In this document: piece after piece, positions 6,593 to 64,000 of the stretch
How the letters are laid out: every line of letters begins with the position of its first letter
Numbering within the stretch: the first letter of the stretch is position 1
From: a virus
Length of the DNA stretch: 64,000 nt
Strand: one strand, 5' to 3'
IMG/VR virus record: IMGVR_UViG_3300011116_001125
Span: 1-64,000 of that record
The notes under the pieces: generated by a model
Databases searched by the model: none
What the model was told of the DNA's origin: nothing
The model's input: the letters and a program-made list of their open reading frames with translations, nothing else
Program-made: the position numbers and the translations under genes

Positions 6593-6594
6593 GT

Positions 6595-8286: not shown

Positions 8287-8318
8287 TCCTTACTATTTTA
8301 ATGCGAAAGGTAGCATAA

Positions 8319-9287: not shown

Positions 9288-9296
9288 AGGTGAAGC

Positions 9297-11671: not shown

Positions 11672-11681
11672 GGGTTAAAAT

Positions 11682-13852: not shown

Positions 13853-13945
13853 CTTGTGTTTTCTACAATGGGACAGTATGGTGAAAGGGCCAAGTATCAG
13901 GTAGGCCCCTGCATAAAGTTCCATACAACTTAAGGGTATGCTCTT

Positions 13946-15412: not shown

Positions 15413-15415
15413 TAA

Positions 15416-22000: not shown

Positions 22001-22123
22001 CCATTCAATCAGCCCGCACCTGCTGCACCAGCTCCACAAGGTGGAGCAGGCAGGGTCGATTATCCATCACTGTTTCCTAATGATCCATTAGGTACAGCAA
22101 TCAGCAACCGTAGTGCGCAATAA
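19043..22123 (+). CDS. Large internal virion protein
   Basis: 1026 aa, helical; last gene of the podovirus-type core cluster; YPSLFPNDPLG C-terminus. Confidence 0.55.
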   Translation: MANDVDPLGGVLVEKATNETPNASQADVQLPPMEAGGPQMVAPEEAYLPGRKVSEGDLGLQRAYFGAFNNMVLALPDAALNAGAFAAEKAGLLSRTSDNPQENRDILTRFFNAANYPERDRLLGIFSLGKGEQIKPETIGEKIAAGTGEATVLATAFPSMAAAATKEGAYLAAPMVEGIEQRYLTQTGTKALGPMFQKAAQEYVTAFKNAPARVLASEIAGGAASGALGTTEQELTGYRTGFGDLAGGMVPAVAPAVAKFIYKWSPTRNIISWGYRMIPGSAGEANMRREAETEIGNEMLKAFKEARKAGRLQEAEDIMNQFREAGYSLELSPAEMTQDPSLRVAQEAAQRSAAGDKARAFRERTEGNVSRIINYSNDANLVDTSAPTAVVKQLQSSAETEAQLQQIGLEELSTYGENVAARLPMARNRAEEGAIIRKALIDAKEAKKKELDAFADEIGINEANPGTLMNPVKKMVRDKYFLDNDTDRYLPKVIRDFATSEDNVINFQTWKRYRDKVSDELSAAIANKQSSDIVNLTKFKEDLDQFGNMFYGTNKNWNTFKTRYADEYAKPFERGVAYEVTTPSPASRPGDVRYLTSDEAVADAFTRNVENAKDFMNLYRDKPEAVNSMRNVILDGARERVIGKSGPYEGTVDPTKLQTFLNQNREVLDTLGLKDELENIQNLSKLFGMRSAQLKDRAAAIGRDKANRLLNNITDGTYSPEEFIDAAIKDPKMMKTITDRASQAEDPNLTEAIKRAVWTRAFETNDIRDPGKFMEFAKTHERSLRMAMGDEHYNRMMTTAKGMGLALYAQEGLDGMPLEAMSGLEKFAKYTGITAASLANAVAAAGRGQVKESYLALAFGGKLLSTRQRAAYNKVMSEVLVDSTLARDLAERSAGDGMPTQKQANRMKAWMLSVGLQPDGKPYEEERPVEDVPIPKELFLPQGATRTPTGPSDINSLPPFLNEPLPQKATPNVTVTFPDSDPSPSNPFNQPAPAAPAPQGGAGRVDYPSLFPNDPLGTAISNRSAQ

Positions 22124-22635
22124 TGAAAGATAATTTTGAACAATGCTTGGCCTTGGTGCTTAAACACGAAGGCGGTTATGTTAATAACCCAAAAGATCCA
22201 GGAGGCATGACTAACCTCGGCGTTACCAAAAAAGTTTGGGAAGAATGGGTTGGTCATACGGTAGACGAAGCAGCAATGCGAGCGTTGGGGCCAACAGATG
22301 TCGCGCCGCTCTACAAGAAAAACTACTGGGACCGTGTCCGTGGAGATGATCTACCGACAGGTGTTGACTATTCTGTGTTTGATCTTGCTGTTAATAGTGG
22401 TGTTAGCCGTGCCGTCAAGTTTTTACAGGCCGCTTGTGGTGTTGCTCAAGATGGCGCTATCGGACCAGCGACATTAGCCGCAGTTGCACAACAACACCCA
22501 CGCGAACTTGCTACCGCTGTGTGTGAAAAACGGTTAGCATTTCTTCAATCATTGCCAACGTGGAATACATTTGGCAGGGGGTGGAACAAGCGTGTAGCCG
22601 AAGTAGAAGAAGCTGCTTTTAAGATGGTCGGCTAA
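22123..22635 (+). CDS. Endolysin, glycosyl hydrolase family 108 with peptidoglycan-binding domain
   Basis: HEGGYVNNPKDPGGMTNLGVT catalytic motif; FDLAVNSG; FGRGWNKR. Confidence 0.9.
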   Translation: MKDNFEQCLALVLKHEGGYVNNPKDPGGMTNLGVTKKVWEEWVGHTVDEAAMRALGPTDVAPLYKKNYWDRVRGDDLPTGVDYSVFDLAVNSGVSRAVKFLQAACGVAQDGAIGPATLAAVAQQHPRELATAVCEKRLAFLQSLPTWNTFGRGWNKRVAEVEEAAFKMVG

Positions 22636-31165: not shown

Positions 31166-32020
31166 ATGAACGGCGAAGGGCAGTTCTTTTATTGGATAAA
31201 TGAGCGCCATTCTATCTATTTGTCTAAGGCGGCGGGTAATCCAAAACCTTGGACAAGTGATAGTATTTTCCAACAGTACAAGTTTACGAACCCTTTTAGG
31301 GAGCTAGACAAAACAACTGTATGGATGCGCGAACATTTGACCAATCCCAACAAAAATGCCCCCATAGCCGAAACCCTGTTCAACTGTTGCGTGTTCCGCA
31401 TGTTTGGCACGATGGAAATGGGCGAGGCTTTGGGTTGGATAAAGCAGTGGGATCCTGAATATGTGAAAAGTCTTGCCCGTGGTCGGTTGAGCATGGGGCT
31501 TAAAGTATTCACAGGGGCATACATTATCACTAACCAAGGGTTGAAAAACCCAAAGGAAGAGGTAGTATGCGATATGTTTCTGACCCCCGTATGGAAAGCC
31601 CGTGATCAGTTAGCCGAGTGCATTGAGCAAACAAATAGTTTGGAAGCACTGCACAAGGAACTTGGCAAGTTTGCAGGATGGGGCGGCGGGGGCTTTATGG
31701 CCTACGAAGTAGTAACCGATCTTAACCATACTAGCGCCATGCCAGAGCCAGTTGATAGGTTTACGTGGGCCAATGCAGGTCCAGGAGCAAAGCGGGGTCT
31801 TAACCGTTTGCATGGTCGCCCCTTGGATAAAGCCAATGGCGTAGACTGGAATAGCGAAATGCAACAGCTATTGGAGCTCGCCCCAAAATACTGTGACCCC
31901 GAAGTATTAGCTCAAGTTGTAGATATGCGCACGATAGAGCATAGCCTGTGCGAATGGGATAAGTACCAACGGGTACTACTCGGCCAAGGTAAACCACGAA
32001 GCCTGTACAAAGGAATTTAG
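31166..32020 (+). CDS. aGPT-Pplase1 / 5-hmdU DNA kinase helical-domain family protein (HhH-glycosylase-like)
   Basis: FYWINERHSIY...PWTSDSIFQQYKFTNPFRELDKTT, GFMAYEVVTD, GPGAKRGL, IEHSLCEWDKY signatures. Confidence 0.8.
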   Translation: MNGEGQFFYWINERHSIYLSKAAGNPKPWTSDSIFQQYKFTNPFRELDKTTVWMREHLTNPNKNAPIAETLFNCCVFRMFGTMEMGEALGWIKQWDPEYVKSLARGRLSMGLKVFTGAYIITNQGLKNPKEEVVCDMFLTPVWKARDQLAECIEQTNSLEALHKELGKFAGWGGGGFMAYEVVTDLNHTSAMPEPVDRFTWANAGPGAKRGLNRLHGRPLDKANGVDWNSEMQQLLELAPKYCDPEVLAQVVDMRTIEHSLCEWDKYQRVLLGQGKPRSLYKGI

Positions 32021-35462: not shown

Positions 35463-37314
35463 CCTTGAAACATACGACCCCCGCCTAACTACACATGGCA
35501 GTGGATGGGCACGTAAGGAAGGTGAAATTATTGGCGTTGCCGTAGCTGTTGATGGCGAGGCTATGTATGTTCCTGTGCGCCATAAAAACGGGCAGAATAT
35601 TGATTGGCGACGTGTGCATTATTGGTTGAAAACAATATGCGGAAACCCTAACCGTGATTATGTATTTCACAACGCCATGTACGACGTTGGTTGGTTATGG
35701 TCCGAGGGTATTGAAATCAAAGGCCGCATTGTTGATACAATGGTTGCCGCGCCGTTAATCGATGAGAACCGTTATAGTTACTCGCTCAATGCGCTTAGTA
35801 AAGACTACTTAGGCGAAACTAAAAATGAATACCTGCTAAAAGAAGCCGCCGCTCAATTTGGCGTGAACCCAAAAGCAGGGATGCACTATCTACCCGCACA
35901 GTTCGTTGGGCCTTATGCTGAGCAAGACGCTGCCCTTACACTGAAACTATGGCAACACTTCAAAAACATTATCATTCGCGATGAGTTGCAGGATATTTTT
36001 GACCTTGAGTTGCGCGTTCTACGTGTGTGTATTGAAATGCGTAAGAAAGGTGTGCGCGTAGATGTTGAGCGTGCCGAGCAAATAAAGCGCGATTTAGAAA
36101 AGCGTGAGCAAGCTATATTAGGTGGTTTGAAAAAGGAATATGGCGTAGCGGTCGATATCTGGGCGGCGGCGAGTATTGCCAAAGCGTTTGATGCCGTAGG
36201 CTTGGAATATGAGCGCACGGAAAAAACCAATGCGCCGAGCTTTACCAAAAACTTTCTTGCTAACCATCAACACGCACTGCCCCGAGCAGTTGTGCAAGCG
36301 CGTGAGCTCAACAAAGCACGCACTACGTTTATTGATACGATATTAGGCCATCAGCATAATGGGCGTATCCATGCTGAAATGCACCAGTTGCGCAGTGATG
36401 ATGGCGGTACGGTTACAGGGCGATTCAGCTACAGCAACCCGAACTTGCAACAAATTCCCGCACGTAACCAAGAAATCGGGCCACTGATACGTGGCTTGTT
36501 TTTACCCGAAGAAGGTGAGTTGTGGGGCGCGTTTGACTACAGTAGCCAAGAACCACGCATCGTTGTTCATTATGCTTCGTTGCTTGATTTCACAGGTGCC
36601 GCAGACTTTGTTGAACAGTACGCAAAAGATGCACGCACGGACTTCCACCAACTTGCGGCGGATATTGTTGGTGTGCCCCGCAAGAAAGCCAAAGACATCA
36701 ATTTGGGTTTGTTCTATGGCATGGGGCAGAAAAAGCTAGCCGACCAGTTAGGCTTGGAGCTTGAAGATGCCAAGGAACTGTTTACCTTGTATCACAACAA
36801 AGTGCCTTTCGTGCGGCAGTTAAGTGATTACGCAATGAACCGTGCGAATAGCAGAGGGATTATTCGTACTTTATTAGGTAGGCGTTGCCGCTTTGATATG
36901 TGGGAACCTATGAAGTACGGTTTGCACAAGCCCTTGCGTCACGCAGAAGCGTACGCGGAACATGGCCCACAGATTAAACGTGCGTTCACTTACAAAGCAC
37001 TTAATCGATTAATCCAAGGCAGTGCTGCAGACCAAACGAAGTTGGCTATGGTAACAGCGTACGAAGCTGGATACTTGCCACTGATACAAGTGCATGATGA
37101 GTTGGATTTTAGTGTGGCAAGTGAACTTGATGCAAAGCGCATCGCCGAAATAATGGAAAGCTGTGTGGGCCTTGCTGTACCGAGCGTAGTGGATGCGGAG
37201 TTCGGTCTAACATGGGGCGAAGCAAAGCAAACATTTACCGATAAACCTTGGACCCGTGGTTTGAAGCATAACCACTCAACAATGGAAACAAACAATGATC
37301 ACACAGCTGAATAG
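35377..37314 (+). CDS. polA: DNA polymerase family A with 3'-5' exonuclease
   Basis: DLET, FHNAMYD, YAEQDA exonuclease motifs; TGRFS, PNLQQIP, DYSSQEPR, KDINLGLFYG, QVHDE. Confidence 0.95.
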   Translation: MMSNLWMNKEWVMPEALPSFSDAAEISIDLETYDPRLTTHGSGWARKEGEIIGVAVAVDGEAMYVPVRHKNGQNIDWRRVHYWLKTICGNPNRDYVFHNAMYDVGWLWSEGIEIKGRIVDTMVAAPLIDENRYSYSLNALSKDYLGETKNEYLLKEAAAQFGVNPKAGMHYLPAQFVGPYAEQDAALTLKLWQHFKNIIIRDELQDIFDLELRVLRVCIEMRKKGVRVDVERAEQIKRDLEKREQAILGGLKKEYGVAVDIWAAASIAKAFDAVGLEYERTEKTNAPSFTKNFLANHQHALPRAVVQARELNKARTTFIDTILGHQHNGRIHAEMHQLRSDDGGTVTGRFSYSNPNLQQIPARNQEIGPLIRGLFLPEEGELWGAFDYSSQEPRIVVHYASLLDFTGAADFVEQYAKDARTDFHQLAADIVGVPRKKAKDINLGLFYGMGQKKLADQLGLELEDAKELFTLYHNKVPFVRQLSDYAMNRANSRGIIRTLLGRRCRFDMWEPMKYGLHKPLRHAEAYAEHGPQIKRAFTYKALNRLIQGSAADQTKLAMVTAYEAGYLPLIQVHDELDFSVASELDAKRIAEIMESCVGLAVPSVVDAEFGLTWGEAKQTFTDKPWTRGLKHNHSTMETNNDHTAE

Positions 37315-37819
37315 AATTTGGCATTTACGCAGGGCAGGATACATTAAGCGTTATCATACAGTGCCTACAGTTGGGGATAGTCAAACCGTGAGTGCGCATT
37401 CTTGGGGCGTTGCAACACTAATCAATGAAATATGGCCCGATGCCAGTAAGCAAGTATTACTCGCTAGTTTGTATCACGATGTTGCCGAAGTGTTGATAGG
37501 TGATACCCCTGCAACAGTGAAGTGGAAGTACGCCGATTTTGCCGCCGCAATCGAAAAAGTAGAAAAAGAAGCGGAAGAAGAATTAGAACTGGAATTTGCG
37601 CTATCCCTGAGAGAGAAGCGCCAGTTGAAAATTGCCGATTTGTTAGAGCTGATGCTTTACGCAGGCGAACAAATAAAGATAGGAAACATGCACTTTAAAG
37701 AAGTACTGAATAACGGAAAAGAATACTTGCAAGTGAAATATGGAAATACCCCTGAGTTTAACGAAGCCTTCCCCATGTTCAACTATGCGCTAACAAGGCT
37801 TAGTCATTCTACCATGTAG
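37295..37819 (+). CDS. HD-domain deoxynucleotide phosphohydrolase (YfbR-like)
   Basis: KRYH...VSAHSW...LYHDVAEVLIGD...KIADLLE. Confidence 0.85.
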   Translation: MITQLNRIWHLRRAGYIKRYHTVPTVGDSQTVSAHSWGVATLINEIWPDASKQVLLASLYHDVAEVLIGDTPATVKWKYADFAAAIEKVEKEAEEELELEFALSLREKRQLKIADLLELMLYAGEQIKIGNMHFKEVLNNGKEYLQVKYGNTPEFNEAFPMFNYALTRLSHSTM

Positions 37820-37856: not shown

Positions 37857-38318
37857 GTGAACATATTCGCCTTACACACTGATCCTGTAATTGCGGCGCA
37901 ATGGCATTGCGATAAGCACGTTGTCAAAATGCCGTTAGAAACTGCTCAGATGCTTTGCACGGTGCATCACCATTACGGCTTTGATGCGCCCTATAAGCCT
38001 GCTCATGCTAACCATCCTTGTACTGTGTGGGCGGGCCAAACGATTGAAAATTACAAGTGGCTCTGGCGCTTAGGCATTGCCCTATGCGAGGAGTATACCC
38101 ACCGATACAACAAAACTCATGCCTGCGAGCAAGTGTTAGCGATAGTGCGTTGCGCTCCACCTACACTCACGGCACGGGGTTACACAAAATTCGCGCAGGC
38201 CATGCCTGACGAATACAAGCACCACGATACACAAATAGCTTATCAACAATATTATCGCGGTGCAAAATACCAGTTGGCTGTGTACACGAAACGTGAACCA
38301 CCGCCGTTCATGCAATAG
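37857..38318 (+). CDS. Pyrimidine dimer DNA glycosylase-like family protein
   Basis: MNIF...HCDKHVVKMPLETAQMLCT, NHPCTVW, EYTHRY, FAQAMPD. Confidence 0.7.
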   Translation: MNIFALHTDPVIAAQWHCDKHVVKMPLETAQMLCTVHHHYGFDAPYKPAHANHPCTVWAGQTIENYKWLWRLGIALCEEYTHRYNKTHACEQVLAIVRCAPPTLTARGYTKFAQAMPDEYKHHDTQIAYQQYYRGAKYQLAVYTKREPPPFMQ

Positions 38319-45840: not shown

Positions 45841-45898
45841 AGGGTTGTCTTTGGTCGGCGGGAGCGCCATTGTAGGCGCACATCGTCGGAGAAAGCGG

Positions 45899-46534
45899 AT
45901 GCCAAAAGGCCAATACGATCGTAAATTAGCGAAGGCTCGTCACGGTAAACCTCTTGCGGCTATGCCCTACGACCACATCGATGTTCAACGGATTAAGCCC
46001 GTAGTTAACCCTCTACATGAAAAGGGCTTGACACAAAGGCAGGAAAAGTTCTGCAAGCTCTACGCTACCGAAAACTACACGGTGAGCGAATGCGTGGTGA
46101 TGGCAGGGTATAGCACCGACCAGAACGCCGTATGGTCTATGGGAAGCAAACTGCTCAACGGGCGGGACTACCCGAATGTGGTGGCCCGTATCCGTGAGCT
46201 CAAGCAGGAGATGGCGGGTAAGTACGAGGTAAACTTTGATAACCACGTAAGGAGGCTAGCGGAGATCCGAGACGCCGCTGTGGCTACGGGCAACTATGCC
46301 GCCGCTGTAACTGCTGAAAAGGCTCGAGGACAAGCTGCGGGGCTCTACGTAACGAGGCAGGAAATTCTCGTTGGCAAAATAGATCAGATGTCCAAGGAAG
46401 AGCTTATTGAAGAGATAGCCAAGCTGAACAAAGAATATCCCGCATTGATAGAGCTCAGCGCTAACCCCGTATTGGAACTCACTGCAAATGACGCCAGAAG
46501 CAAGGTTGTGGAACCTAGTAAAAGAAAAGACTGA
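45899..46534 (+). CDS. terS: Terminase small subunit
   Basis: LTQRQEKFCKLY...AGYS...SKLL...PNVVARIRELK HTH pattern; ATG 45899 after GGAGAAAG. Confidence 0.75.
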   Translation: MPKGQYDRKLAKARHGKPLAAMPYDHIDVQRIKPVVNPLHEKGLTQRQEKFCKLYATENYTVSECVVMAGYSTDQNAVWSMGSKLLNGRDYPNVVARIRELKQEMAGKYEVNFDNHVRRLAEIRDAAVATGNYAAAVTAEKARGQAAGLYVTRQEILVGKIDQMSKEELIEEIAKLNKEYPALIELSANPVLELTANDARSKVVEPSKRKD

Positions 46535-46904
46535 ACGGCTTGTTGAATGGACAAGGATTGAGGCGCGTGTTGGGGCAGGAATACCCGACTTAAACGGGGT
46601 TCTTTGCATAGATGCAAGCAAAGAGGTCTGGTTGGAGCTTAAGGTTTGCAAGACAAAACGCTTCTCAGTTAAAAACCTCTGGCGTCCTGCCCAAATTGCT
46701 TGGCAGACAAAGCGTAGCCGCAGACTAAGTAATGTTTTCAACTTGGTCAGCCATCCGTCCGGAGGGGTTTTTTATATTTATTCAGCCGCCAAACTGCAGA
46801 AATTAGTGGAGGAAGGTCCGTTGTCCGTGGTCCCAGACCTGACGATGCACGGTAAAATTGACGTGGCGATGATGCTTGATTATATACAATCCGTGGCCGA
46901 TTGA
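46488..46904 (+). CDS. PD-(D/E)XK nuclease (Holliday-junction resolvase/VRR-NUC-like)
   Basis: E...RIE...GIPDL...WLELK...PAQIAW. Confidence 0.7.
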   Translation: MTPEARLWNLVKEKTERLVEWTRIEARVGAGIPDLNGVLCIDASKEVWLELKVCKTKRFSVKNLWRPAQIAWQTKRSRRLSNVFNLVSHPSGGVFYIYSAAKLQKLVEEGPLSVVPDLTMHGKIDVAMMLDYIQSVAD

Positions 46905-46909
46905 CCAAG

Positions 46910-46974
46910 AACATTCGAATAATCCGCTATCGCCTGATGAGAAACATTCGAAAAAACCGCTATCCACTGATGAG
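46910..46974 (+). repeat. Two-copy 32-bp tandem repeat
   Basis: AACATTCGAATAATCCGCTATCGCCTGATGAG and AACATTCGAAAAAACCGCTATCCACTGATGAG. Confidence 0.8.
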
Positions 46975-47151
46975 TGGCTCTTCGCGCACGGTCATCGTCG
47001 CATCTTCCTCTGCTCATGTATCATGGTCCTCGTCTGATCGGATCGTCGTCTCGTCTTACTTTTCGTCAGGTGATCTTACTCATCGGCAGGTCGTCTGACC
47101 AGGTCTCTTGAGCTATGCACCAGACGCAGGTCAGCTATGCGTTTTTGTGGA

Positions 47152-47179
47152 TGGTCTTTTGGCTGTCTGGTCCTAGAAT
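47152..47179 (+). promoter_or_regulatory. Promoter of the stand-alone gene
   Basis: TGGTCT-N16-TAGAAT; AGAAAGGG SD upstream of 47236. Confidence 0.5.
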
Positions 47180-47235
47180 GGTTTCCATGGTTGAGCAATG
47201 GTGCTTCGCCATAGACCACAGAAAGGGTCAACGTC

Positions 47236-47739
47236 ATGCTTAATACTCAAAACACAACAAAGTCCTCCAAGGGTGTCAGCCTCGCAAAGTCAGCCAAAGC
47301 GCCAGTCGTTGCCAAAGAAACTGTTCCTGTCGTGTCACCTGCTCAGGCATTTGACCTCAGCAATGGTCACCCATTCACCAAAGCGTCGCTCGTCGCATGG
47401 TGTAATGCGAACGTCGGTGGATGGTCCATGGCGAACTTGGACAAGGTCAAGGTCACCGTTCTGCCGACCGTGAACACTTCGGGCAATCCGGACCTCTACA
47501 AGGGTCACAAGCTCCCGTTCGGTTATGGCAAGCTCGGCGGTTCCCGAGCATTTTATCAGGACGCTCTGCTCGCCGCTCCTACGCTCGGCGCGTTCATCAA
47601 AGCGGTCGCAGGCAAGCAAAAGGGATACAACGAGTTCTCCACGCCGCACACTGTCATCGCTCTGCTCAATGGCGGGTACGGTCCGCTCTGTCGGGCAGGA
47701 TACTTCGGCACCCCGTTCATCAGCCTCAGCGTCGCGTAA
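47236..47739 (+). CDS. Stand-alone hypothetical protein between TerS and TerL
   Basis: 167 aa with its own promoter, SD and terminator; distinct codon usage. Confidence 0.7.
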   Translation: MLNTQNTTKSSKGVSLAKSAKAPVVAKETVPVVSPAQAFDLSNGHPFTKASLVAWCNANVGGWSMANLDKVKVTVLPTVNTSGNPDLYKGHKLPFGYGKLGGSRAFYQDALLAAPTLGAFIKAVAGKQKGYNEFSTPHTVIALLNGGYGPLCRAGYFGTPFISLSVA

Positions 47740-47765
47740 TTACCGCATCGCACAATAAGTTCGTC

Positions 47766-47797
47766 GGCCCGTGTTGCAATGCAACACGGGTCTTTTT
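47766..47797 (+). terminator. Intrinsic terminator
   Basis: GGCCCGTGTTGC-aat-GCAACACGGGTC followed by TTTTT. Confidence 0.85.
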
Positions 47798-48078
47798 GCG
47801 TCGCACCATGTTCGTCCGCGCGTCGTCCGCTGACGTTACGTAACTCTAGGTACCCTTGGTCCGCGCATCAAGATCAATCGTCCGACGAAGATCGCGACCC
47901 CCCCTTTTTAGGCCCCGCGTTTGCCACAACACCTAAAACCAGATTTTTCACAGTTCAATAGCAAAATTCAAAATTTATGACCCCCTAAATGAGAAAAGGG
48001 TCTTAAGGTACCCCGATTGCCGTATCGATATATATTTGTTAATGATCAGTGATCCATGGTTCGCGGACGAAAGGCCCC

Positions 48079-49554
48079 ATGCAGAATCTTGTAGCCCAAT
48101 TACAAAATGTGCCCCGCGAAAAGTTGGTGGAGCGTCTAAAGGCTGAGCAGCGGTTGGTGAAGCTAGCGCAGCAGGATAAGGCCCGTGATAATTTTCTAGA
48201 TTTTGTAAAGTTGGTTTGGCCCGGATTTATTGCGGGGCGGCACCATAAAATTGTGGCCGAGCATTTTGAGGCGATAGCAAAGGGTGAAACGCGCCGTTTG
48301 ATTATCAATATGCCGCCGCGCCATACAAAGTCTGAGTTTGCGAGTTATTTGTTTCCGGCGTGGATGGTGGGCAGGCGCCCCGAGTTAAAGATTATGCAGG
48401 CTACCCATACAGCGGACCTTTCAATACGGTTCGGGCGTAAGGTGAAAACCCTTATGGAAACCGAAGAGTATCGTAATGTGTTCGGGGTAAAGTTGCGTAG
48501 TGATAGTAAGGCTGCGTATCGGTGGGAAACTGATGGTGGCGGTGAATACTATGCGGCGGGTGTGGGCGGTAGTATCGCGGGCCGTGGCGCTGATCTGTTT
48601 ATCGTAGATGACCCGCATTCAGAACAAGATGCTATGAGTCCGGCGGCGTTGGAAAGTGCATGGGAATGGTACCAAGGTGGTCCGCGCCAACGTTTGCAAC
48701 CCGGAGGTGCAATCGTGGTGGTTATGACTCGGTGGTCCGAGCTTGACCTTACCGCCAAGTTGCTGAAGCAAAGTGCTATGGATGCAAAGGCCGATAAGTG
48801 GGAATTGGTAGAGTTTCCTGCTATTATGCCAAGTGGCGAACCTTTGTGGCCTGAGTTTTGGAAGTTGGAAGAGCTCGAGGGTGTTAAGGCCAGTATCCAA
48901 CTAAGCAAGTGGCAGGCGCAGTATATGCAAGCGCCAACGGCTGATACGAGTAGCATCATTAAACGGGGTTGGTGGCAGCGGTGGCAAACTGAAAAAATAC
49001 CCAAGCTGCAATACGTGATGCAAACATACGACACTGCTTTTCTTAAAACGCAAACGGCGGATTTTAGCGCCATACAAACGTGGGGCGTGTTTTATCCAAG
49101 CGAGGATAAAGGGCCGAACATCATATTGCTAGATGCTAAAAAGGGGCGGTGGGAATTTCCTGAGCTTAAGCGCATAGCATTGGAAGAGTATCAGTACTGG
49201 GAGCCCGAAACAGTATTGATTGAAAGTAAGGCGGCAGGTACGCCCCTAACCCAAGAGCTACGGTCCATGGGCATTCCTGTGGTTAACTTCAGCCCGAGTA
49301 GGGGTAACGATAAAATCAGTAGGGCAAATGCCGTGGCCCCGTTGTTTGAAAGCGGTATGGTCTGGGCACCCGAGGCCAGTTGGGCCGAGGAAGTGATAGA
49401 GGAATGTGCGGCCTTTCCTTTTGGCGAGCATGATGATATGGTAGACGCCATGACTCAGGCGCTTATGCGTTTTAGGCAGGGTGGATTTATAACTCACCCC
49501 GAGGATTACCAAGATAACTACGAGGGGCCTCCCTCTAATAGGGTATACTACTAA
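48079..49554 (+). CDS. terL: Terminase large subunit
   Basis: NMPPRHTKS Walker A, GRGADLFIVDDP, VMTRW, YDTA, HDDMVDAMTQAL nuclease motif. Confidence 0.93.
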   Translation: MQNLVAQLQNVPREKLVERLKAEQRLVKLAQQDKARDNFLDFVKLVWPGFIAGRHHKIVAEHFEAIAKGETRRLIINMPPRHTKSEFASYLFPAWMVGRRPELKIMQATHTADLSIRFGRKVKTLMETEEYRNVFGVKLRSDSKAAYRWETDGGGEYYAAGVGGSIAGRGADLFIVDDPHSEQDAMSPAALESAWEWYQGGPRQRLQPGGAIVVVMTRWSELDLTAKLLKQSAMDAKADKWELVEFPAIMPSGEPLWPEFWKLEELEGVKASIQLSKWQAQYMQAPTADTSSIIKRGWWQRWQTEKIPKLQYVMQTYDTAFLKTQTADFSAIQTWGVFYPSEDKGPNIILLDAKKGRWEFPELKRIALEEYQYWEPETVLIESKAAGTPLTQELRSMGIPVVNFSPSRGNDKISRANAVAPLFESGMVWAPEASWAEEVIEECAAFPFGEHDDMVDAMTQALMRFRQGGFITHPEDYQDNYEGPPSNRVYY

Positions 49555-52039: not shown

Positions 52040-54265
52040 ATGGTTAATCGCGGCGGCATTGGTGATTTGTTGGTAGGCCGTAAAATGGCAGGTTTGCCAA
52101 CAGTGCAGGATGTGCAGACCTATGCCCAAGGCGGCGAAACTACCATTGAAATGCCGAAGTCGCTTAAAGAGTTGCAAAACTGGAATAAAACGCACCCCGA
52201 CAAAAACCTCATGGATCAGATTTTTACTGACCGTAGGGTCGGTGTCGAAGGTGCTGAACCCATAGCTATGCCTGCCAATGTGGATGAGCTGACTGCTTTT
52301 ATGAAAGCTAAACGTCAGGGCTACTCACACGGTGGCGAAACAAAGGCAATGGCCCATCACCTGCAAAGCATGGGGCAAGATGGGGATACAATACTGGCCC
52401 ATATCAACCCAGAAGAAGCAGGTATTCTTAAAGCACTTGGGGGGTCGGGCAAGCCTAATCCACATACAGGGTTGCCTTCTTTTGGTGTGGATAATGGCCC
52501 CGAAGCAGGAGCAACAGGTTCTTTTTCGGCTAACCGCGCTGCAGAGGCAGCTTCCGTACGCGGAGGTGATACTGTAAGTGGTGCTTCTACCTCTTTTGGT
52601 GGTGGTGGCGGTGGTGGCGGTGGCGGCGGTGGCGGTGGCGGTCGTGACGAAAGCTCGTACTCAGGGCCTATATCACGTTTTGGTACCGATGTTACCAATG
52701 CCAACATACAGGCAACACAACCTTCCACCGTTTCGCCTATGGGCAATTTTGATATCTATGGTGGCCTTGGTGGGGGCAGTAATCTTGTTTCGCCTGTACC
52801 TGCACCTAGTTTTACTTCCACTGATTTTTCAGCAGATCCGTTTAAGGGGCCGTATGTAAGCCCTTTAATGACGGTTGCCCGTATGCAGGATAACCCTGTT
52901 TCTTCCACTTTTAATGAAAAAGCTATGGAAAGCCTTAACCCTTGGTTTCAAACCAAGGCAGCGGCGCTTCTTGATAGCATGATGGATAAGGGGTTAACTC
53001 CTTATTTTTCTTCGGGCAGCCGTACTGTTGCTCAACAAGCAGACATTTATGCTAACCCTTCGCCTTATGGGGCGGCACCTCCTGGAATGTCAGCGCACAA
53101 CTTTGGGCAGGCTTTTGATATCGGAGGCCTTACCAACAAGCAGATGATCGACGCAGGCTTGATGGCCGAATCACAAGGCATGGGTTGGGGTGGGCGGTTT
53201 GCTACCTATGATCCGGTGCATTTTCAAGAAATGCCAAGTTCCGCTAGCCCTGCAAAATACGCGGCCTCAGTAGGGGTACCGATGTATAAAGGCGTTTCTG
53301 TTGGCGGGGTAGAAACAGCAGGTGCCACACGGCCTGAGCCATTTGATATGGGCAAGGCTATTACAGACCGCCTTTCTAGCGTGTTTACTCCAGGAGGCAT
53401 TGGGTCGTTGGTTCTTGGAGCAGCCGTACCGCCTCTTGGAGCGTATGATCTAGCTGCAAATGTTGTGAATATGGCAGGGGGCACCCTGCCCACAACCTCC
53501 AATATGATCAACCAAAGTCTTGGCGTTCCTGTAGCGGAACCTGCGCAAGTACCTGTTGTTCCGCCGATGCAACCTAGCCGTCCTATAACACCAACACCTT
53601 CTACGGCAGTGGCAGACATCTATACACCTGCAAGTGGCCCGACTACACGTGGCACGTATGATGCGTTAGCCAATGTTGAATACACCTCCGGTGGTCCACC
53701 TACACGCGCAACTACGCCTGCTTCTATGCAAGTTGCTGATGCTTCCGGTAGCATTGTGCCAACACAAACTGCCCCTGCCGCACCGCAAGAACAAGGGTGG
53801 TGGGATAAGCTGTTTAACAATCCAGAAGCTGTGCAAAAGGTTTTGGAAACGGAAAATACGTACAATCCTGGATATGCCAATACTACAAGTGGCCTAACTA
53901 AAGAAGAATGGGCCAGTGAAATGCAAGTAGACCCCGATACGGTAAAAGCTCGCATTACCACTATGAACGGCGTGCCTCAAGTAGATTGGTATACTAAAGG
54001 TCTAGATGAGGCCCTTGCTGAAATGGTAACAGGGCCGTTTAAAGCAATCGGCAGTGCTTTAGGGTTCGGCAAAGGTACGGCGGATGCAACACAAGTAACG
54101 CCTTATATTCCAACAGGCGGTATTGGTGATCATCAAACGGCTGTAGCGCAAACTATGTTCGGCGGTTTCGAAGAAGAAATACCCCCTAAGAAAAAATCAA
54201 TTTACGAAATATGGCCTACTGATGCAGAAGGTTATACAGGGCCGTATAGCAAGTATCTCGTTTAA
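52040..54265 (+). CDS. Virion protein with M15-family (L-Ala-D-Glu-type) peptidase domain
   Basis: SGSRTVAQQ...SAHNFGQAFD...WGG...DPVHFQ; also a GDTILAHINPEEA module and a poly-Gly linker. Confidence 0.7.
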   Translation: MVNRGGIGDLLVGRKMAGLPTVQDVQTYAQGGETTIEMPKSLKELQNWNKTHPDKNLMDQIFTDRRVGVEGAEPIAMPANVDELTAFMKAKRQGYSHGGETKAMAHHLQSMGQDGDTILAHINPEEAGILKALGGSGKPNPHTGLPSFGVDNGPEAGATGSFSANRAAEAASVRGGDTVSGASTSFGGGGGGGGGGGGGGGRDESSYSGPISRFGTDVTNANIQATQPSTVSPMGNFDIYGGLGGGSNLVSPVPAPSFTSTDFSADPFKGPYVSPLMTVARMQDNPVSSTFNEKAMESLNPWFQTKAAALLDSMMDKGLTPYFSSGSRTVAQQADIYANPSPYGAAPPGMSAHNFGQAFDIGGLTNKQMIDAGLMAESQGMGWGGRFATYDPVHFQEMPSSASPAKYAASVGVPMYKGVSVGGVETAGATRPEPFDMGKAITDRLSSVFTPGGIGSLVLGAAVPPLGAYDLAANVVNMAGGTLPTTSNMINQSLGVPVAEPAQVPVVPPMQPSRPITPTPSTAVADIYTPASGPTTRGTYDALANVEYTSGGPPTRATTPASMQVADASGSIVPTQTAPAAPQEQGWWDKLFNNPEAVQKVLETENTYNPGYANTTSGLTKEEWASEMQVDPDTVKARITTMNGVPQVDWYTKGLDEALAEMVTGPFKAIGSALGFGKGTADATQVTPYIPTGGIGDHQTAVAQTMFGGFEEEIPPKKKSIYEIWPTDAEGYTGPYSKYLV

Positions 54266-57534: not shown

Positions 57535-58152
57535 ATGGCAAACATCAATGCCGCGTTCGGACTTCGTCCGTACAACATGCTTGGAAGCGGTGCTAACACC
57601 AACGGCGATTCTGTATTCGTTATTCAATCAGCGGATACGGCAGGTACGTCTAGCGCGATTTATAACGGCTCGCCCGTTATTCCGCTCGCTAACGGCTTGA
57701 TCGACATCGTCGGCGCAGCAGCGGGTGGTACAGTTCCGATTCTGGGCGTTTTCATTGGCTGCAATTACATTGACCTTACGGGTAAACCCCGTTGGTCGCC
57801 ATATTGGCCTGGAACTGCTTCGGTTAAGGCAAACACTGTTGCTACGGCAATGGTTGTTGCTAATCCGGATGCAGTATTCACGATCAATTGTGACGCAGCC
57901 GCAGCAGATAGCCTTATTCATGCTAACGCAAACTTCTCGACGGCAACGTCGGGCAGCACTACGTCGGGCCAGTCCTCGGCGCAGCTTGCAGTTAGCACAG
58001 CGAATACGACTAATACGCTGAATCTCCGCATCCTCGGTTTTGAAGACATTCCTAGCAGCAATGATGCTACTGTGGCAGGTCGCAACGCTATCGTGATGCT
58101 TAACAACCACTTCTACCGTTACTGTGCCAACGGCACAGGCGCGGGCGTGTAA
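57535..58152 (+). CDS. Capsid decoration/minor capsid protein
   Basis: MANINAAFGLRP...GVFIGCNY; directly upstream of MCP. Confidence 0.7.
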   Translation: MANINAAFGLRPYNMLGSGANTNGDSVFVIQSADTAGTSSAIYNGSPVIPLANGLIDIVGAAAGGTVPILGVFIGCNYIDLTGKPRWSPYWPGTASVKANTVATAMVVANPDAVFTINCDAAAADSLIHANANFSTATSGSTTSGQSSAQLAVSTANTTNTLNLRILGFEDIPSSNDATVAGRNAIVMLNNHFYRYCANGTGAGV

Positions 58153-58167
58153 GGGGAGCATTGAACA

Positions 58168-59076
58168 ATGGCTATTACTCGTTCCCAACTACTCAAAGAA
58201 CTTGAGCCCGGACTCAATTCTCTTTTTGGCATGGAGTATGATCGCTACGACAACGAGCACACTGAAATTTTCGATACCGAATCTTCAGACCGTGCTTTTG
58301 AAGAAGAAGTCATGCTTTCCGGCTTTGGTCAGGCTCCGGTCAAGGGCGAAGGTTCTGCCATCGCTTACGACACGGCAGGTGAAGCCTTCACAGCACGCTA
58401 CACCCATGAAACGATCGCACTTGCGTTCGCTATCACGGAAGAAGCTGTGGAAGACAACCTGTATGACAAGTTGTCAAGCCGCTACACCCGTGCGCTCGCA
58501 CGTTCGATGTCCAACACCAAGCAGGTCAAGGCCGCATCTGTTCTTAACAATGCGTTCTCGTCCTCTTATGTCGGCGGCGACGGCGTTTCGCTCATTAACT
58601 CTGCTCACCCGACAGTAGGTGGCGGTAACTGGTCAAACACGCTTGCAACGCAGGCTGACCTTAACGAAACTTCGCTCGAACAGGCTTTGATTGATATCGC
58701 AGCCTTCATCGACGAACGTGGCCTTAAGGTTGCTTTGCGCGGCATGAAGTTGATCATTCCGCCTGCCTTGCAGTTTACTGCAGAGCGTATTCTCAAGTCG
58801 GAACAGCGTGTTTCAACGGCGGATAACGACATCAACGCACTCAAGTCGGGCGGATACATGCCGCAGGGCTTTACGGTCAACCACTTCTTGACCGATCCGG
58901 ATGCGTGGTTCGTTAAAACCGATGCGCCTAACGGCATGAAACACTTTGTCCGTAGCCCAATTAAAACGGCTATGGAAGGCGAATTCGAAACAGGTAACGT
59001 GCGCTACAAGGCGCGTGAGCGTTATTCGTTCGGTTGGTCTGACCCGCGCGCCATGTATGGTTCGCAGGGCGCATAA
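58168..59076 (+). CDS. Major capsid protein, second allele
   Basis: Differs from 177-1085 at only a few residues (e.g. LNAL vs LNSL, NANH vs NSAH). Confidence 0.9.
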   Translation: MAITRSQLLKELEPGLNSLFGMEYDRYDNEHTEIFDTESSDRAFEEEVMLSGFGQAPVKGEGSAIAYDTAGEAFTARYTHETIALAFAITEEAVEDNLYDKLSSRYTRALARSMSNTKQVKAASVLNNAFSSSYVGGDGVSLINSAHPTVGGGNWSNTLATQADLNETSLEQALIDIAAFIDERGLKVALRGMKLIIPPALQFTAERILKSEQRVSTADNDINALKSGGYMPQGFTVNHFLTDPDAWFVKTDAPNGMKHFVRSPIKTAMEGEFETGNVRYKARERYSFGWSDPRAMYGSQGA

Positions 59077-62000
59077 TTACTGCTTTCGCAACGGCAGTAA
59101 AGGAAGAGCGGGCCTTGTGTCCGCTCTTTTTCTATTGTAACGTGCATTGTTCCTGACTGCTAAGGCAGACAACCCCAACGACAGGAGACTCACATGGGGA
59201 CGACAACTTTTTCCGGACCAATTAAAGCGGGTCCGATTAAATTCACCACAGGCACTACACTTGGTCAAGATGTTGCTGACGTAGGTAATGTGGTTCTTTC
59301 ACAGTCAAGCGCACTTACGCAGGCTAAGAATGGCAGCAACGCAACGGGTGTGTACAGCACGGATATTGTTATTCCGGCAGGCAGCACCATTACATCTATT
59401 CAAATTTTTGTAACGGCGGCGTGGTCGGGTGCAGCACAAACAATCAATGTGGGCACTGATTCAACTGCAACGCAGCTTGCTGTTGCCGCAGATAACGATC
59501 TTTCCACAACGCTTGGTTTGAAAACAATCGTTCCAGGAAGTGATGCAACACGTACAGGCAAGTGGATTACAGTTGGAACAAACGATGTTCGCATTTGGAC
59601 AAAGTCAACCAACACGGGCACTGGCGTAGGCGTGATGGTTGTTAACTACATCCAAAACGGCGCAATTAGCCCCTAATACCTAGGAGGCTAATATGGCCGA
59701 TGCGGTAACAACACAAACTATCTTCCAAGGCGATAAAACCCTTGTAATGAAGTTTACCAACATTTCAGATGGCACCGGAGAGTCCGGTGTCATCAAAGTA
59801 AACGTTGGTGCGCTTACTTCTTACCAAGGTATGCCGTGTACTGCTGTTCAAATTGACAAAGTCTATGCCATGACGCATGGTATGGAAGTTAGGCTTTATT
59901 GGGCAGCTACTACTCCGCAACTTATTATGACCATACCCGCTAATATTATGAATACCCAAAACTATGATGAGTTTGGTGGAATTGATAATAATGCAGGGGC
60001 AGGTAAAACAGGTAATATCACTTTTACAACTGCGGATGCTTCTTCAGGTGATATGTATACAATCATCTTAGTAATGCGTAAGCTGTATTAAAAGAGACGA
60101 TAATGACTCGACCCCCTTCCTCAGTAACTAGGACTGGCGCGTATGAGCCTTTTAACTTGCAGGTAGCGCGGGGCCAAATTCCGTGGCACCAAAGTATCGT
60201 TGTTTTTGGTTATAACCCAGACGTAGATACAAGTGTTGAAACTGTTTGGCCTTACGGGGGTATTCTTTCCTTTCCCGACAATGCTTTGCGGATGTCTGTT
60301 AGTTCAGATAATACTAACGACACAGCAGCAGGGACAGGCGCTAGAACCGTTTATATTCAAGGGCTGAACGCTAATCACGATACGATCAGCGAAACAGTTT
60401 CTTTAAATGGTCAGGCTGCCGTACTTACGGCAAACTCTTATCTACACATAAATCAAGCCTACGTTGCAACCGCTGGATCATTAAACAGCGCCGCAGGTAA
60501 TATTTACTTTGGAACAGACGCTTTAACTTTAGGCGTTCCAGCAACCGTTTATGATATTATTCAATACGACTATAACACCAGAGTTACTGGAAGTTATACT
60601 ATTCCATCCGGCTACACCGGATACTTAGAACAGGGCTTGTTTTCTTCTGGGCAGGCTGGCGGTTCTAACGCTGTGACCGGACGTCTTATGACACGCGGTA
60701 CGGATGATATTCGTAGGACAGCAGCGATTGTTACGATAAATAATGGTGCTGCTGACTATGCGTTTGAGTATCCCGTTGTTATACCAGAAAAAACAACTAT
60801 TGAGGCTCAAGCAATAGGTTCCTCTAACAACAATGCTTGCTCCAGTATGTTTATTCTTGTGCTCATAAAAAATGATGCGGGGACTGCGTGATGGCTAAGG
60901 GCATGGGCATAAAAACTTCGGTAAAATCAGGCAATTTCCGGCCCACAAAATCAGGTGCCGGAATGACTGAAAAGGGTGTAAAAGCCTTTCGTCGTGCCAA
61001 TCCTGGATCAAAGTTAAGCACCGCAGTTACAGAAAAAAGTCCTACCGGAAAGCGTGCAGCACGCAGAAAATCGTTCTGTGCGCGTTCCGCTGGGCAAATG
61101 AAAATGTTCCCTGAAGCTGCTAAAGACCCTAACAGCCGCCTCCGGCAAGCGCGTAAGCGTTGGAGGTGCAAATGATATTAGATCTGCAAATGCTTTGGAA
61201 TGTACTCTTAACACTCGTGTTGCTTCCACTTGCTTGGATACTTGTGTATTTGAACACACGTATTTCAGAAGCAGAGGAAAAGTCTTTGGCTACTTTTGAA
61301 CGTGTTTGGAAATCAATATCCGAACACCGTGAAGATATTCCAAAAACCTACGTTACTAAAACTGACCTATTAAATACTCATAATCAAATTATGGGCCGTT
61401 TTGATCGGTTAGAAGAAAAAATTGATCGCATTACTGGAGTAGGCAAATGAAAGTACGCGCTAAAAATTCCTTGCCTGTGCCACGCGGATCAAAAATGCGT
61501 ACGTCTCCTTTTGGCATGAAAAAAGGTGGCGCTTTGGGTAAAACCAAGAAACCTAAAGTTGGTATAGCAATTATGATTGCTGTCGGTAAGCCTAGAAAAG
61601 GAATGCGTAATGGCTAAGAAGGAAACCTCAATGGTTATGAAAAAACGTGGTGGTGGCATGGCTACCCGTGGTATGGGCGCGGCTTATAAAAAAGGCGGTC
61701 CAATTTTAGAATACGGTGGCAAGGAAAAATATTCTTCCCGTGCTTCAATGAAAAAGCATGAGGGTAAAGAGTCTATGAGCGCTGAGGCAGGCGAAAAGGC
61801 TATGCGCGGTGGCGGTATTGCTACCCGTGGAAAAGGTATTGCCCTTGCAGGAGGTGGCATGATGCCAAAGAAACCTGCGGTAAACCCATTTGGCCCCCGT
61901 GGTGGGCGTCCTGCTCCGAAAAAACTTTACATTGGTGGTTCTCGAAGGTTTGATGAAAACACTGGTTCTTATGGAAACGGTAGACCAGCAATCGATCCTT

Positions 62001-62379
62001 TACCTACCCGTAGAGCAAAAGGCGGGATGGCTAAAGGTCGTAAGGGCTGCAAGTAATGAAAAAAGAGGTTTGGGCCAAGCCACGTCCTAAAGGGTTGGGT
62101 AAGCCCAAGCCTCTTACTTCTAAGCAGAAAACTTCTGTTAAAAAAGCTGCTAAGGCTGCGGGGCGTCCTTATCCTAACCTTGTTGATAATATGCGTGCTG
62201 CGAGGAAAAAATGAAAAAGCCAACAAAAGCACAAGCTAAAATTCGTACTGTGCTACACGAGTTTAAGGTGGGCAAACTTCATTCGGGCAGCAAAAAAGGT
62301 CCAACTGTTAAAAACCGCCAACAGGCGATTGCTATAGCTCTTTCGCAAGCTGGTAAGTCGAAAGGCAGGAGTAAATAAA

Positions 62380-63246
62380 ATGGTAAGTCCTATGATGGGT
62401 TATGGTGGTGTGCAACCACAAAATGCTGTTAATCCTGCGCAACCATTGAATCAAGCGCAACCGCAGCAAGCTATGCCGCCTCAACAAGGGTATCCACAAA
62501 CGCAGCAAAGCGCGCAAGTTCAACAGGCATACCCGCAAACGCAACAAGGGTATCCGCAAACGCAGCAAAGCGCGCAAGTTCAGCAAGCCTATACGAAACC
62601 TGCTTACCCCGCTTCTGGAATAGCTAGTGCTATAGGTGCGCCCCTACCTCCAAATATGTTTGCTTCTCCACTCCCTCCACCTCCAAATATGGTTGCTTCT
62701 CCACTTCCTCCGCCTCCTTCTGGTGCGCAAACAACGTATCAAAACGTGCTAATGAGCCCTAAATTCCAAGGGTTACCGCCGGAAGACCAGCAAAGAGTCC
62801 TGTCTTCGATTCAAATATATGCGCAACAACCTATGCAAATGCAGCAGCCATCCCCTCTGACTCTGCCTCCGCCTCCGCCTCCTTCCTTAGACGCGGTGCG
62901 TTCTGATGCGCAAACCTCGTATCAAAAAATGCTAATGGACCCTAATTTCCAAGGGTTACCGCCGGAAGAGCAGCAAAAATTTCAATCTTCGTACCAACAG
63001 TATATGCAAAATTTGCCATCTGCCTACGCTCAAAATCAACAGCAGTATGCACAAATGATGGCGCAACAACCCATGCAAATGCAGCAGCCAAGCACATCAA
63101 ATCCTTCTGACATGGCAGCGTTACGAAGGGCACACCTTGATAATGCACGTCGTCAACAAGTAGGGATTGCAGGGCTAGGCATGGATCCTGATAGAATGCG
63201 TCGGTTAGCTAGTATCGCTAGCCTTGCAGGTGGAGTGCGCAGATGA
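62380..63246 (+). CDS. Gln/Pro-rich low-complexity protein, allele of 4387-5001
   Basis: Shared MMGYGGVQPQ start and IASLAGGVRR end; internal tandem repeats. Confidence 0.75.
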   Translation: MVSPMMGYGGVQPQNAVNPAQPLNQAQPQQAMPPQQGYPQTQQSAQVQQAYPQTQQGYPQTQQSAQVQQAYTKPAYPASGIASAIGAPLPPNMFASPLPPPPNMVASPLPPPPSGAQTTYQNVLMSPKFQGLPPEDQQRVLSSIQIYAQQPMQMQQPSPLTLPPPPPPSLDAVRSDAQTSYQKMLMDPNFQGLPPEEQQKFQSSYQQYMQNLPSAYAQNQQQYAQMMAQQPMQMQQPSTSNPSDMAALRRAHLDNARRQQVGIAGLGMDPDRMRRLASIASLAGGVRR

Positions 63247-64000
63247 AAAAAGCCGTAAAACGCCGTAAGTATGCAGATGGGGGCAATGTGCAGGATCCTG
63301 CTACGCCCCCTATCGGAACCACAGATCTTTCCGGTGCAGCAACACAAAGCCAAGCACAAACTTCTTCTGACACTGGTCCTGGTCCAGGACAAGTTTCTCC
63401 GTATTATTCGCCTTCTGATTATGGTACACCTACGGGAGCGATGGATACGCAGAAAAGAAATTTGTATACGCAAGACCGTATGACAGGCCAAGGTTCATCA
63501 ACTGAGGGCTATGCAAAAGGTGGCATGGTCAACAAACGGGGTAAAGTTCGTGGTTGTGGTGTGGCTAAACGTGGGCTCACAAAAGGCAAGGTGTACTGAA
63601 CATGCTTAAGCGTAAAAAGAAACCTATTTCTCCGCCACCACCTGAGTACGATACCCCTTCTGGTGAAGAGCAGTACAAGAAAACTCTGGAAGAAAACAGA
63701 AAGCAGCTGGGAGAACCTAAAACAGCTGACGAAGTTACTCCAGAAGAGGAAAAAACTTTACGTGAAACCATGCGTAAGCAGGTGGAAGAAAGCAACTATA
63801 AACGCGGCGGCATGGTCAAAAGCAAAGCCCGTGGTTGTGGCATTGCAGTGCGCGGTTTAACCAAAGGCAGGATGTATTGACATGACAAAAGGTTCTGCTT
63901 CACCTACAGGGTTAATGAATATTGGTATGTGGGAAGATTCCCCTGCTGATATTCGTGGTGATACCGCTATTAAAAAGCGTATGGGCAAGCAGGGCATGTC

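Follow-up and report, generated by a model that had tools for sequence, protein, structure and literature searches.

Why does a segment of less than 1 kb between the two terminase genes of an uncultured tailed phage accumulate the dinucleotide 5'-TC-3', which the rest of the genome avoids? The question is raised by a 64,000-nt stretch (hereafter the window, meaning the whole stretch analysed) of the IMG/VR virus record IMGVR_UViG_3300011116_001125, in which a TC-saturated island at 46975-47900 lies between the genes for the small (TerS) and large (TerL) terminase subunits. An initial annotation had viewed this island as a physical genome end or first-injected DNA, protected from nucleases by a maximal density of a modifiable dinucleotide, or as a modification-dependent packaging signal. 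The island appears to be a self-contained cassette comprising a small gene (gene X), its ribosome-binding site and terminator, and flanking repeats. It occupies a conserved place immediately before TerL in a clade of tailed, aquatic phages in which thymine would be hypermodified. The TC excess of this cassette is selected, and we give a probability of roughly one half to the reading that the modification density of the cassette is itself the selected trait.

The island contains 104 TC steps in 926 nt (11.2%, odds ratio 1.53), compared with 3.9% (odds ratio 0.71) in the window as a whole. In a sliding scan it forms the strongest TC peak of the complete 75.6-kb contig, holding the nine richest 300-nt segments (overlapping, with starts between 46801 and 47601) at z values of up to 5.7. 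GA is not raised (31 steps, 3.3%), and the bias therefore sits on one strand only. Among longer words, GTC is found 44 times, where the rest of the genome would predict 5.6, and TCGTC 12 times, where 0.3 would be predicted. The borders are abrupt, at approximately 46975 and 47895, and the GC content rises to 52-57% from about 47% in the flanks. Genome-wide, both TC and GA are depleted, and the most depleted trinucleotides are GTC, GAG, GAC, and CTC (0.48-0.58 of expectation). The abrupt compositional change noticed in the initial annotation is thus real, and its counts were reproduced: 13 TC steps in 46980-47039 and 12 in 47040-47099, where about 2.3 per 60 nt would be expected at the window's own frequency and 3.75 at random.

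Gene X (orf167; 47236-47739, on the + strand, as are the other stranded features of this locus and the PF18723 gene) encodes 167 amino acids and is a TC-rich variant of a phage-only family. Given its protein, the number of TC steps in the gene could range from 0 to 81, and 21.4 +/- 3.9 would be expected from the codon usage of the genome; 52 were observed. By the same measure GA is at its expected level (14 vs. 15.7). The codon preference that had been claimed for the embedded gene proved to be strong: GTC accounts for 67% of valine codons (6-8% elsewhere), CTC for 69% of leucine codons (6-7% elsewhere), TTC for 75% of phenylalanine codons, and ATC for all three isoleucine codons, while TCN makes up 69% of serine codons compared with 22% in the replication genes. 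Third-position C is used in 73% of the codons that can end in TC, compared with 20% in the replication genes. On the other hand, the remaining NNC families show 30% in X and 37% in the replication genes, and AAC, TAC, GCC, ACC, CCC, and GGC are not enriched. The preference for C-ending codons is therefore confined to NTC, which rules out a general bias in third-position GC (GC3) or a donor bias; both a GC-rich donor and optimisation for translation would increase C in every NNC family, which is not what X shows.

Comparison with close relatives indicates that these silent TC steps are also maintained. X of the closest comparison locus, L083, differs from that of the window at 40 nucleotides with 98% protein identity, and the silent positions that form TC have changed in 2 of 42 codons, compared with 33 of 118 other codons (Fisher p = 0.001). 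The X gene of a more distant locus, L084, contains 33 TC, and the window has preserved its TC steps (p = 0.04); TC steps have therefore been maintained once they were gained. The excess of TC in the cassette is thus a selected feature.

What could be selected is suggested by the restriction sites of the genome. Within one genome unit (positions 1-57991), 61 of the 63 CCGG sites occur as TCCGG or CCGGA, an indication that TC is the context of the modification. Similarly, a T or A adjoins 29 of the 30 CCWGG sites (26 on both sides), all 6 CTGCAG sites, and 10 of the 11 CCATGG sites, while control words are flanked in approximately 32-50% of cases and CGCG, CATG, and CTAG show no flank bias in the genome unit. 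CCGG itself is scarce (63 sites vs. about 172-181 expected). The single CCWGG without a flanking T or A, which had been singled out as unprotected in the initial annotation, lies inside the island at 47099-47103 (GACCAGGTC; ACCAGGT), and there a TC step directly follows the site on both strands. In thymidine hypermodification of phages M6, ViI, and PhiW-14, a TS context (TG or TC) has been inferred, including the protection of a site by a T that adjoins it (tGCCGGC; Flodman et al. 2019, PMC6449724); for the phage T-dioxygenase 5mYOX97, an NTC preference has been measured (PNAS 2026, PMC13229309). We infer from these signatures that the T of 5'-TC-3' is the modified base, and a modified T may shield neighbouring restriction sites.

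Two other explanations were rejected. A footprint of cytosine deaminase (TC to TT), considered for the genome-wide TC depletion, fails to account for the 97% of CCGG sites that keep their flanking T, and avoidance of UV photoproducts is at odds with the abundance of TT and CC in islands of related phages that are free of TC and GA.

The modification genes are also linked to the presence of X. The genome carries a thymidine-hypermodification operon at about 31-35 kb that consists of a PF18723 protein, a radical SAM/SPASM protein, and a ThyA-like protein. The gene for the first of these (31166-32020; PF18723, the helical domain of the 5-hmdU DNA kinase family, at 1.7e-49) adjoins the genes for the other two. 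Of the 13 X-bearing contigs tested, 12 contain PF18723, whereas it is missing from both complete relatives that lack X. Among the comparison loci, the flank signature together with TC depletion is found in L001-L009, L011, L012, L014, and L015, and the flank signature is absent from L010, L013, and most of L016-L078. The L010 and L013 loci (also represented as L105/L106 and G008) have PF18723 and a TC-rich, GA-poor X (47 TC and 7 GA in L013), and their genomes show no TC depletion; of the CCGG sites of L013, 39 of 64 are flanked. The state of X is therefore not strictly coupled to the genome-wide signature. Taken together, the idea in the initial annotation that the TC density is selected in connection with thymine modification is supported by the silent-site excess, its confinement to NTC, its conservation relative to L083, its extension into the non-coding flanks, and the survival of CCGG and CCWGG beside a 5' T.

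The TC-rich sequence extends beyond the gene in both directions. Immediately before the left edge of the island, a 33-nt direct repeat is present in two copies at 46910-46974 (Tandem Repeats Finder score 102), each ending in CTGATGAG; the pair is almost invariant in L083 and L084, and GATGA[GT]-type repeats occupy the same place in distant relatives. The densest non-coding TC patch follows at 46975-47110, with 12-13 TC per 60 nt and 7 of the 12 TCGTC words of the island. It contains degenerate 45-61-nt repeats (families D5, D9, and D12) and is conserved in L083 and, in part, in L084. RNA folding of this upstream region was no better than that of shuffled sequences (z = -0.21), and no tRNA or Rfam family was found in the island; at a permissive Rfam threshold the sole match was the terminator hairpin, which was discarded as a chance match. 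Because the Rfam, tRNA, and fold tests were negative, the CTGATGAG words are not considered to be a hammerhead ribozyme.

A candidate -10 element, TAGAAT, was read from the sequence and the alignment at 47174-47179 (TATAAT in L084); no good -35 element accompanies it, and a consensus promoter scan did not report it. The ribosome-binding site AGAAAGGG (47220-47227), located 8 nt before the ATG, is invariant in the window, L083, and L084. Downstream of X, a terminator scan identified an intrinsic terminator at 47766-47799 (a 12-bp stem followed by a T run), whose stem is conserved in L083, L084, and L085, in the last of these with a compensated pair change. The sequence after it (47800-47900) is a TC-rich non-coding tail that is 95.7% identical to that of L083 and contains 3 of the 12 TCGTC words (at 47812, 47823, and 47878); over the whole non-coding segment 47740-47900, there are 16 TC and 6 GA.

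The evolution of the cassette was examined in 80 loci fetched by TerL and 65 loci fetched by X. Members of the X family are located just upstream of TerL, and downstream of TerS and a small conserved gene (orf138), in many lineages, and the distance between TerS and TerL varies from 1.1 to 5.4 kb. L083 is collinear with the window and 92% identical over 3.8 kb, the island having diverged to the same degree as its flanks; in L084 and L085 the cassette is present and collinear at 80% identity. As for recurrence of the island at the same locus, the X cassette does recur upstream of TerL in relatives, but there it is mostly free of both TC and GA. A total of 32 distinct TC/GA-free stretches of 300-875 nt were found, nearly all at the position of the X cassette, and no other dinucleotide class yields comparable free runs. 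These islands contain no CCWGG (41.7 expected) and 11 CCGG (50 expected). The purge spans whole transcription units, from promoter to terminator, and the encoded proteins have no Asp or Glu; a normal twin gene is often present about 1 kb upstream. The window cassette is not in this state, having 52 TC, 14 GA, and 6 Asp+Glu, and the longest TC/GA-free run in its genome is 116 nt.

In some relatives both states occur side by side. The gap between the terminase genes of L004 contains two X genes, of which the upstream copy is TC-rich and GA-poor (32 TC, 9 GA), and the TerL-proximal copy lies in a 732-nt stretch with no TC or GA at all, including its non-coding flanks, and encodes a protein without Asp or Glu. 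Such tandem pairs of a TC-rich and a TC/GA-free copy are present in L003-L006, L011, and L012, and the tree shows that the TC-rich upstream copies in L003, L011, and L012 are recent duplicates of TC/GA-free genes. In the same tree, which was midpoint-rooted only, window X groups with those of L083, L084, and L002, all TC-rich, and the sister group is formed by the TC/GA-free genes from L015 and L086 (support 100/92). The clade of window X is nested among TC/GA-free genes, and the TC-rich state needs three changes on the tree; the state of the window is therefore most parsimoniously derived and inverted, and its cassette is probably a derived, 'armoured' version of an ancestrally TC/GA-free cassette. 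We found no published description of either a TC-saturated or a TC/GA-free cassette state.

Regulatory signals of the TC/GA-free islands differ from the usual ones. Their -35-like elements upstream of X (for example in L093, L116, L119, and L141) are TTGCAA, TTTACA, and TTGTTA; the consensus TTGACA, which contains GA, is not used. Their ribosome-binding sites are AAAAAGGG or similar, compared with AGAAAGG in the window genome. The purge has therefore reshaped regulatory signals too.

Tandem arrays are also found in this part of the relatives' genomes: a 16-nt unit repeated about 10 times in L004 (4930-5085), a 19-nt unit 5 times in L086 (around 3650-3750), a 20-nt unit about 9 times in L099 and L104 (upstream of X), and a 13-nt unit 5 times in L085 (around 690-750). 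The arrays are perfect, lineage-specific, and unrelated in sequence, and they occupy the same place, in the interval that separates the terminase-side genes from the X promoter or immediately after X. The array of L004 adjoins an AT-rich stretch of about 100 nt that resembles an origin or packaging site. TCGTC was ruled out as a universal motif by the unrelated sequences of these arrays.

The protein encoded by X is basic and has a disordered, Ala/Pro/Lys-rich N-terminus followed by a globular domain of about 110 amino acids. Homologues at 63-97% identity occur in metagenomes, and the phage-only family comprises 79 cluster representatives among 1.8 billion proteins. Approximately 45 of the 79 carry at most one acidic residue. 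The X of the window is a member by alignment, by profile match (311.9 bits), and by tree placement, and the residues invariant in the family are W55, G61-G62, P94-F95, R104-A105, A142, and L144-N145-G146-G147. No family was found in Pfam or PHROGs, no named family by PDB profile search or in the ESM Atlas, and nothing at E of 0.001 or better in PDB and BFVD with Foldseek. The AF2 model (pLDDT 67) gave only weak winged-helix-like matches in VIA-align (Z of 5 or less). Moreover, tblastn searches with X and with a TC/GA-free homologue against 50,697 GenBank phages gave no match. X may be a DNA-binding or anti-defence protein that is made in abundance.

The preferred reading, at about 0.5, starts from the observed anatomy, homology, and synteny of the cassette, the silent-site selection on TC, the link with modification genes, and the flank signature of the restriction sites, and proposes that the density of modification in the X cassette is what selection acts on. 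In most lineages, the cassette, free of TC and GA on both strands and also purged of CCGG and CCWGG, would remain unmodified. The lineage of the window would have flipped this state, with TC saturating the silent sites and flanks, but only on the coding strand. Should TC be the target, modified T on that strand would reach about threefold its usual density, with the template strand at or below average. The purpose may be to keep the cassette intact and expressible under attack by host nucleases, 'armoured' in the window and 'naked and site-free' in its relatives.

A bolder version, which we put forward as speculative and rather improbable, is that the cassette is a two-state device for the evasion of host defence, in which X is a pioneer DNA-binding or anti-defence gene, required to persist and be expressed against any nucleases of the host, and lineages toggle between the two states. 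The naked state, having no TC or GA, would be invisible to modification-dependent nucleases and would offer no CCGG or CCWGG, whereas the armoured state would present a TC-saturated non-template strand, as in the window. The tandem pairs with one copy of each state would then be a hedge in some phages.

Several points weigh against the preferred reading. The enrichment is on one strand (TC is raised, GA is not), which simple protection of double-stranded DNA from nucleases would not need. The densest patch, at 46975-47110, lies upstream of the candidate promoter and thus is not obviously part of the X transcript, and this promoter is weak by consensus and was not called by the scan. L010 and L013 have a TC-rich X without the CCGG flank signature. 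X has no recognisable fold or family, so that its function is a guess, and the ancestral state depends on a midpoint-rooted tree. Finally, both the modification and its specificity for TC are deduced from signatures in the sequence.

Among the alternatives, the one that survives best, although doubtful, is closest to the initial annotation. In this view, a direct terminal repeat or the pac/cos region coincides with the island or lies within it, and the strand-specific TC would protect the end or give the terminase a directional, modification-dependent signal; gene X would then be either a passenger or the gene that enters the cell first. The location between TerS and TerL, beside the conserved repeats at 46910-46974, would suit such an element, as would the tandem arrays at the same spot in L004, L086, L099, L104, and L085. 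In T7-like phages, arrays of short repeats flank the short terminal repeats, and the only solved relatives of TerL are T7-type terminases, which it matches weakly (E = 0.002). A strand-specific bias would also fit a directional process.

Sequencing depth, taken from the Logan contigs of 22 runs, speaks on both sides. In run X2, possibly the virome from which the record came, a 347-nt contig (46902-47248) has a depth of 143.8, about twice that of its 5-kb neighbours (69.7 and 78.7), and the excess in the right-hand contig fits approximately 650 further doubled bases, to about 47.9 kb. In runs X4 and X5, however, the depth of the island is about threefold, above what a terminal repeat would yield; this points to a segment shared by co-occurring strains, which could explain X2 too. 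The edges of the 347-nt contig are set by a variant bubble. Variants were seen at this place in all three runs: a rare one in X2 (depth 3.8), in which 47068-47165 is replaced by 85 other letters, and a variant joint at 47100-47165 in X4 and X5.

Other observations also argue against a terminal element. Many independent contigs read through from TerS over X to TerL, and near-complete relatives either close as circles at arbitrary positions or break in the tail-fibre region. Three 'linear' near-complete relatives have ends that overlap by 105-126 nt at arbitrary positions, the ends of G002 overlap inside a tandem repeat, a further four are interrupted at or close to a tail-fibre-like gene (about 9.3-11.7 kb) or have unmappable ends, and the end of the L084 contig is a tandem-repeat break; contig ends were therefore discarded as a proxy for genome ends, the arbitrary overlaps and the repeat and tail-fibre breaks making them uninformative. 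Moreover, the TC enrichment spans a 504-nt coding region under codon-level selection, far above the known size of pac/cos sites. All genes but one run in one direction, and the usual place for an end would be the 24.1-kb gap before the early genes.

An unlikely alternative is a modification-sensing switch, in which X, or a regulator of X, reads modified or unmodified TC and the TC load of the cassette times its expression. TC-free copies would always be expressed, and TC-rich copies only from unmodified, or only from modified, templates. Two expression regimes would suit the tandem pairs of L003-L006, L011, and L012, in which TC-rich and TC/GA-free copies are recent duplicates, and the extent of the purge over whole transcription units, from promoter to terminator, fits as well. 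The weak winged-helix-like matches and the Lys/Ala/Pro-rich tail are compatible with DNA binding. On the other hand, those fold matches are below significance, at Z of 5 or less, DNA binding by X is only putative, and the window has a single copy of X.

It is very improbable that selection on RNA or translation accounts for the island, by way of a UC-rich, GA-poor message that improves mRNA stability, avoids endoribonucleases, or provides optimal NTC codons. The bias is indeed strand-specific and on the coding strand, and NTC codons, read by G34 tRNAs, are often preferred in highly expressed genes. However, the other C-ending codons are not enriched as well, TC is densest in a non-coding stretch that precedes the candidate promoter, the sequence after the terminator is likewise rich in TC, and the upstream region has no significant RNA structure. 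Furthermore, TC and GA are purged jointly in relatives, a pattern characteristic of a constraint on double-stranded DNA.

Least credible is a recent horizontal insert (moron) with the GC-richer composition of its donor, named in the initial annotation as a possible refutation of its view: although the raised GC content, the abrupt edge, the separate terminator, and the variable TerS-TerL gap would suit it, it is rejected because the synteny of X across the clade, a tree coherent with the same-locus neighbours, and a codon bias specific to NTC without a general GC3 shift contradict it, and the island is neither more nor less diverged than its flanks in the collinear L083, its TC steps are under purifying selection, and no match was found in GenBank phages.

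The genes on either side of the cassette are those named in the initial annotation. TerS (45845-46534; PF03592 at 3.1e-08, phrog_51 at 2e-14) forms the left flank and is kept upstream of the cassette in relatives. Its end is overlapped by orf138 (46488-46904), a small conserved partner that follows TerS in nearly all relatives. This gene matches phrog_2165 (3.4e-15), annotated as 'DNA helicase'; its protein shows a G-I-P-D...E-L-K (PD...ELK) pattern instead, which suggests a small PD-(D/E)xK nuclease, possibly a partner of the terminase. TerL forms the right flank at 48049-49554 (phrog_38 at 3.3e-110, PF17289), and its weak likeness to T7 gp19 is to structure 4bij at E = 0.0024. Between the island and TerL, the segment 47901-48048 is the most conserved of the locus (98% identical to L083). 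A conserved pair of AGGTACCC motifs, at 47848-47855 and 48006-48013, is found upstream of TerL at a distance of 158 bp, and L004 has an equal pair at 159-bp spacing (GGTACC at 5787 and 5946); the pair may form part of a late promoter or packaging signal. Short repeats near the terminase genes thus comprise the 33-nt pair, the TCGTC repeats, and the two AGGTACCC motifs.

The window is part of one viral contig of 75,636 nt. Positions 1-17,645 recur, in a form diverged by substitutions and indels, at 57,992-75,636, so that the contig represents a 1.3-fold concatemer of a genome unit of about 57,991 nt. Because the terminal 17.6-kb copy is diverged, the contig is considered to join two strains around a circle of about 57,991 nt. 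The genes of the window at 57992-64000 duplicate those of 1-6000. All large genes except one are on the + strand, and the early and replication block (24-45 kb) is followed by TerS, orf138, the island, and TerL, then by portal, head, tail, and ejection genes, and finally by lysis genes. Directly after the portal gene, a 741-amino acid protein (52040-54265) has an endolysin-like domain (phrog_2649, residues 292-396); this is probably an internal virion protein that is ejected and degrades the cell wall, and a separate GH108 endolysin is located at 22123-22635. This phage, which would replace or modify thymine, also carries a PF03013 homologue (T4 endonuclease V-type pyrimidine-dimer DNA glycosylase; 37857-38318) adjoining an HD-domain 5'-deoxynucleotidase (37295-37819). 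No phage RNA polymerase was recognised among the open reading frames scanned. By TerL, the nearest GenBank phages are HTVC023P-type pelagiphages (about 64% nucleotide identity), and the GenBank relatives 023Pt_psg01 and HTVC027P have another layout and lack X.

The locus suggests that phages can tune the modification density of a given gene in both directions, which goes beyond the division into modified and unmodified genomes. If TC is the modified context, the cassette would reveal the specificity of an uncharacterised thymine hypermodification from sequence alone in dozens of uncultured phages. On the speculative two-state reading, a location at the end that enters the cell first would further make it a first-step-transfer module that works through modification density and not through a DNA-mimic protein. 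In addition, X represents a new protein family, and the island provides a warning for annotation, as a phage segment of sharply different composition is not necessarily of foreign origin.

Compared with known systems, the genome of the window shares several features with the thymidine hypermodification of M6, ViI, and PhiW-14 and with 5mYOX97. It has dUMP-hydroxymethylase-like, PF18723, and radical-SAM genes; its CCGG and CCWGG sites survive, near-universally, only with a 5' flanking T, like the tGCCGGC effect (PMC6449724); and specificity for T followed by C has an enzymatic precedent (PMC13229309). Those papers differ in describing genome-wide spread and restriction resistance, without a gene-sized saturated or emptied segment, and the chemistry and specificity in the window are read from sequence footprints only. 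The TC/GA-free cassettes of relatives share the position by the terminase genes, and the window shows the reverse of their state, with about three times the usual TC on one strand and normal GA.

A second comparison is with leading-end cassettes. T7 gene 0.3 (Ocr) lies behind strong host promoters, beside the terminal repeat and its short-repeat arrays, and the first-step-transfer region of T5 has no EcoRI sites. Similarly, X is small, forms its own transcription unit, and lies beside repeat arrays, and the cassettes of relatives are purged of restriction sites and located behind sigma-70-like promoters, as read from their sequences. On the other hand, X is basic, unlike an acidic DNA mimic, resembles neither Ocr nor the pre-early proteins of T5, and is directly followed by structural genes, and its position at a genome end is only putative. 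The avoidance of restriction palindromes is shared as well, with CCGG reduced to 63 sites from the 172-181 or so expected and both CCGG and CCWGG avoided in the islands of relatives. The difference is that here a non-palindromic dinucleotide is under selection, and that in the window it is enriched instead of avoided.

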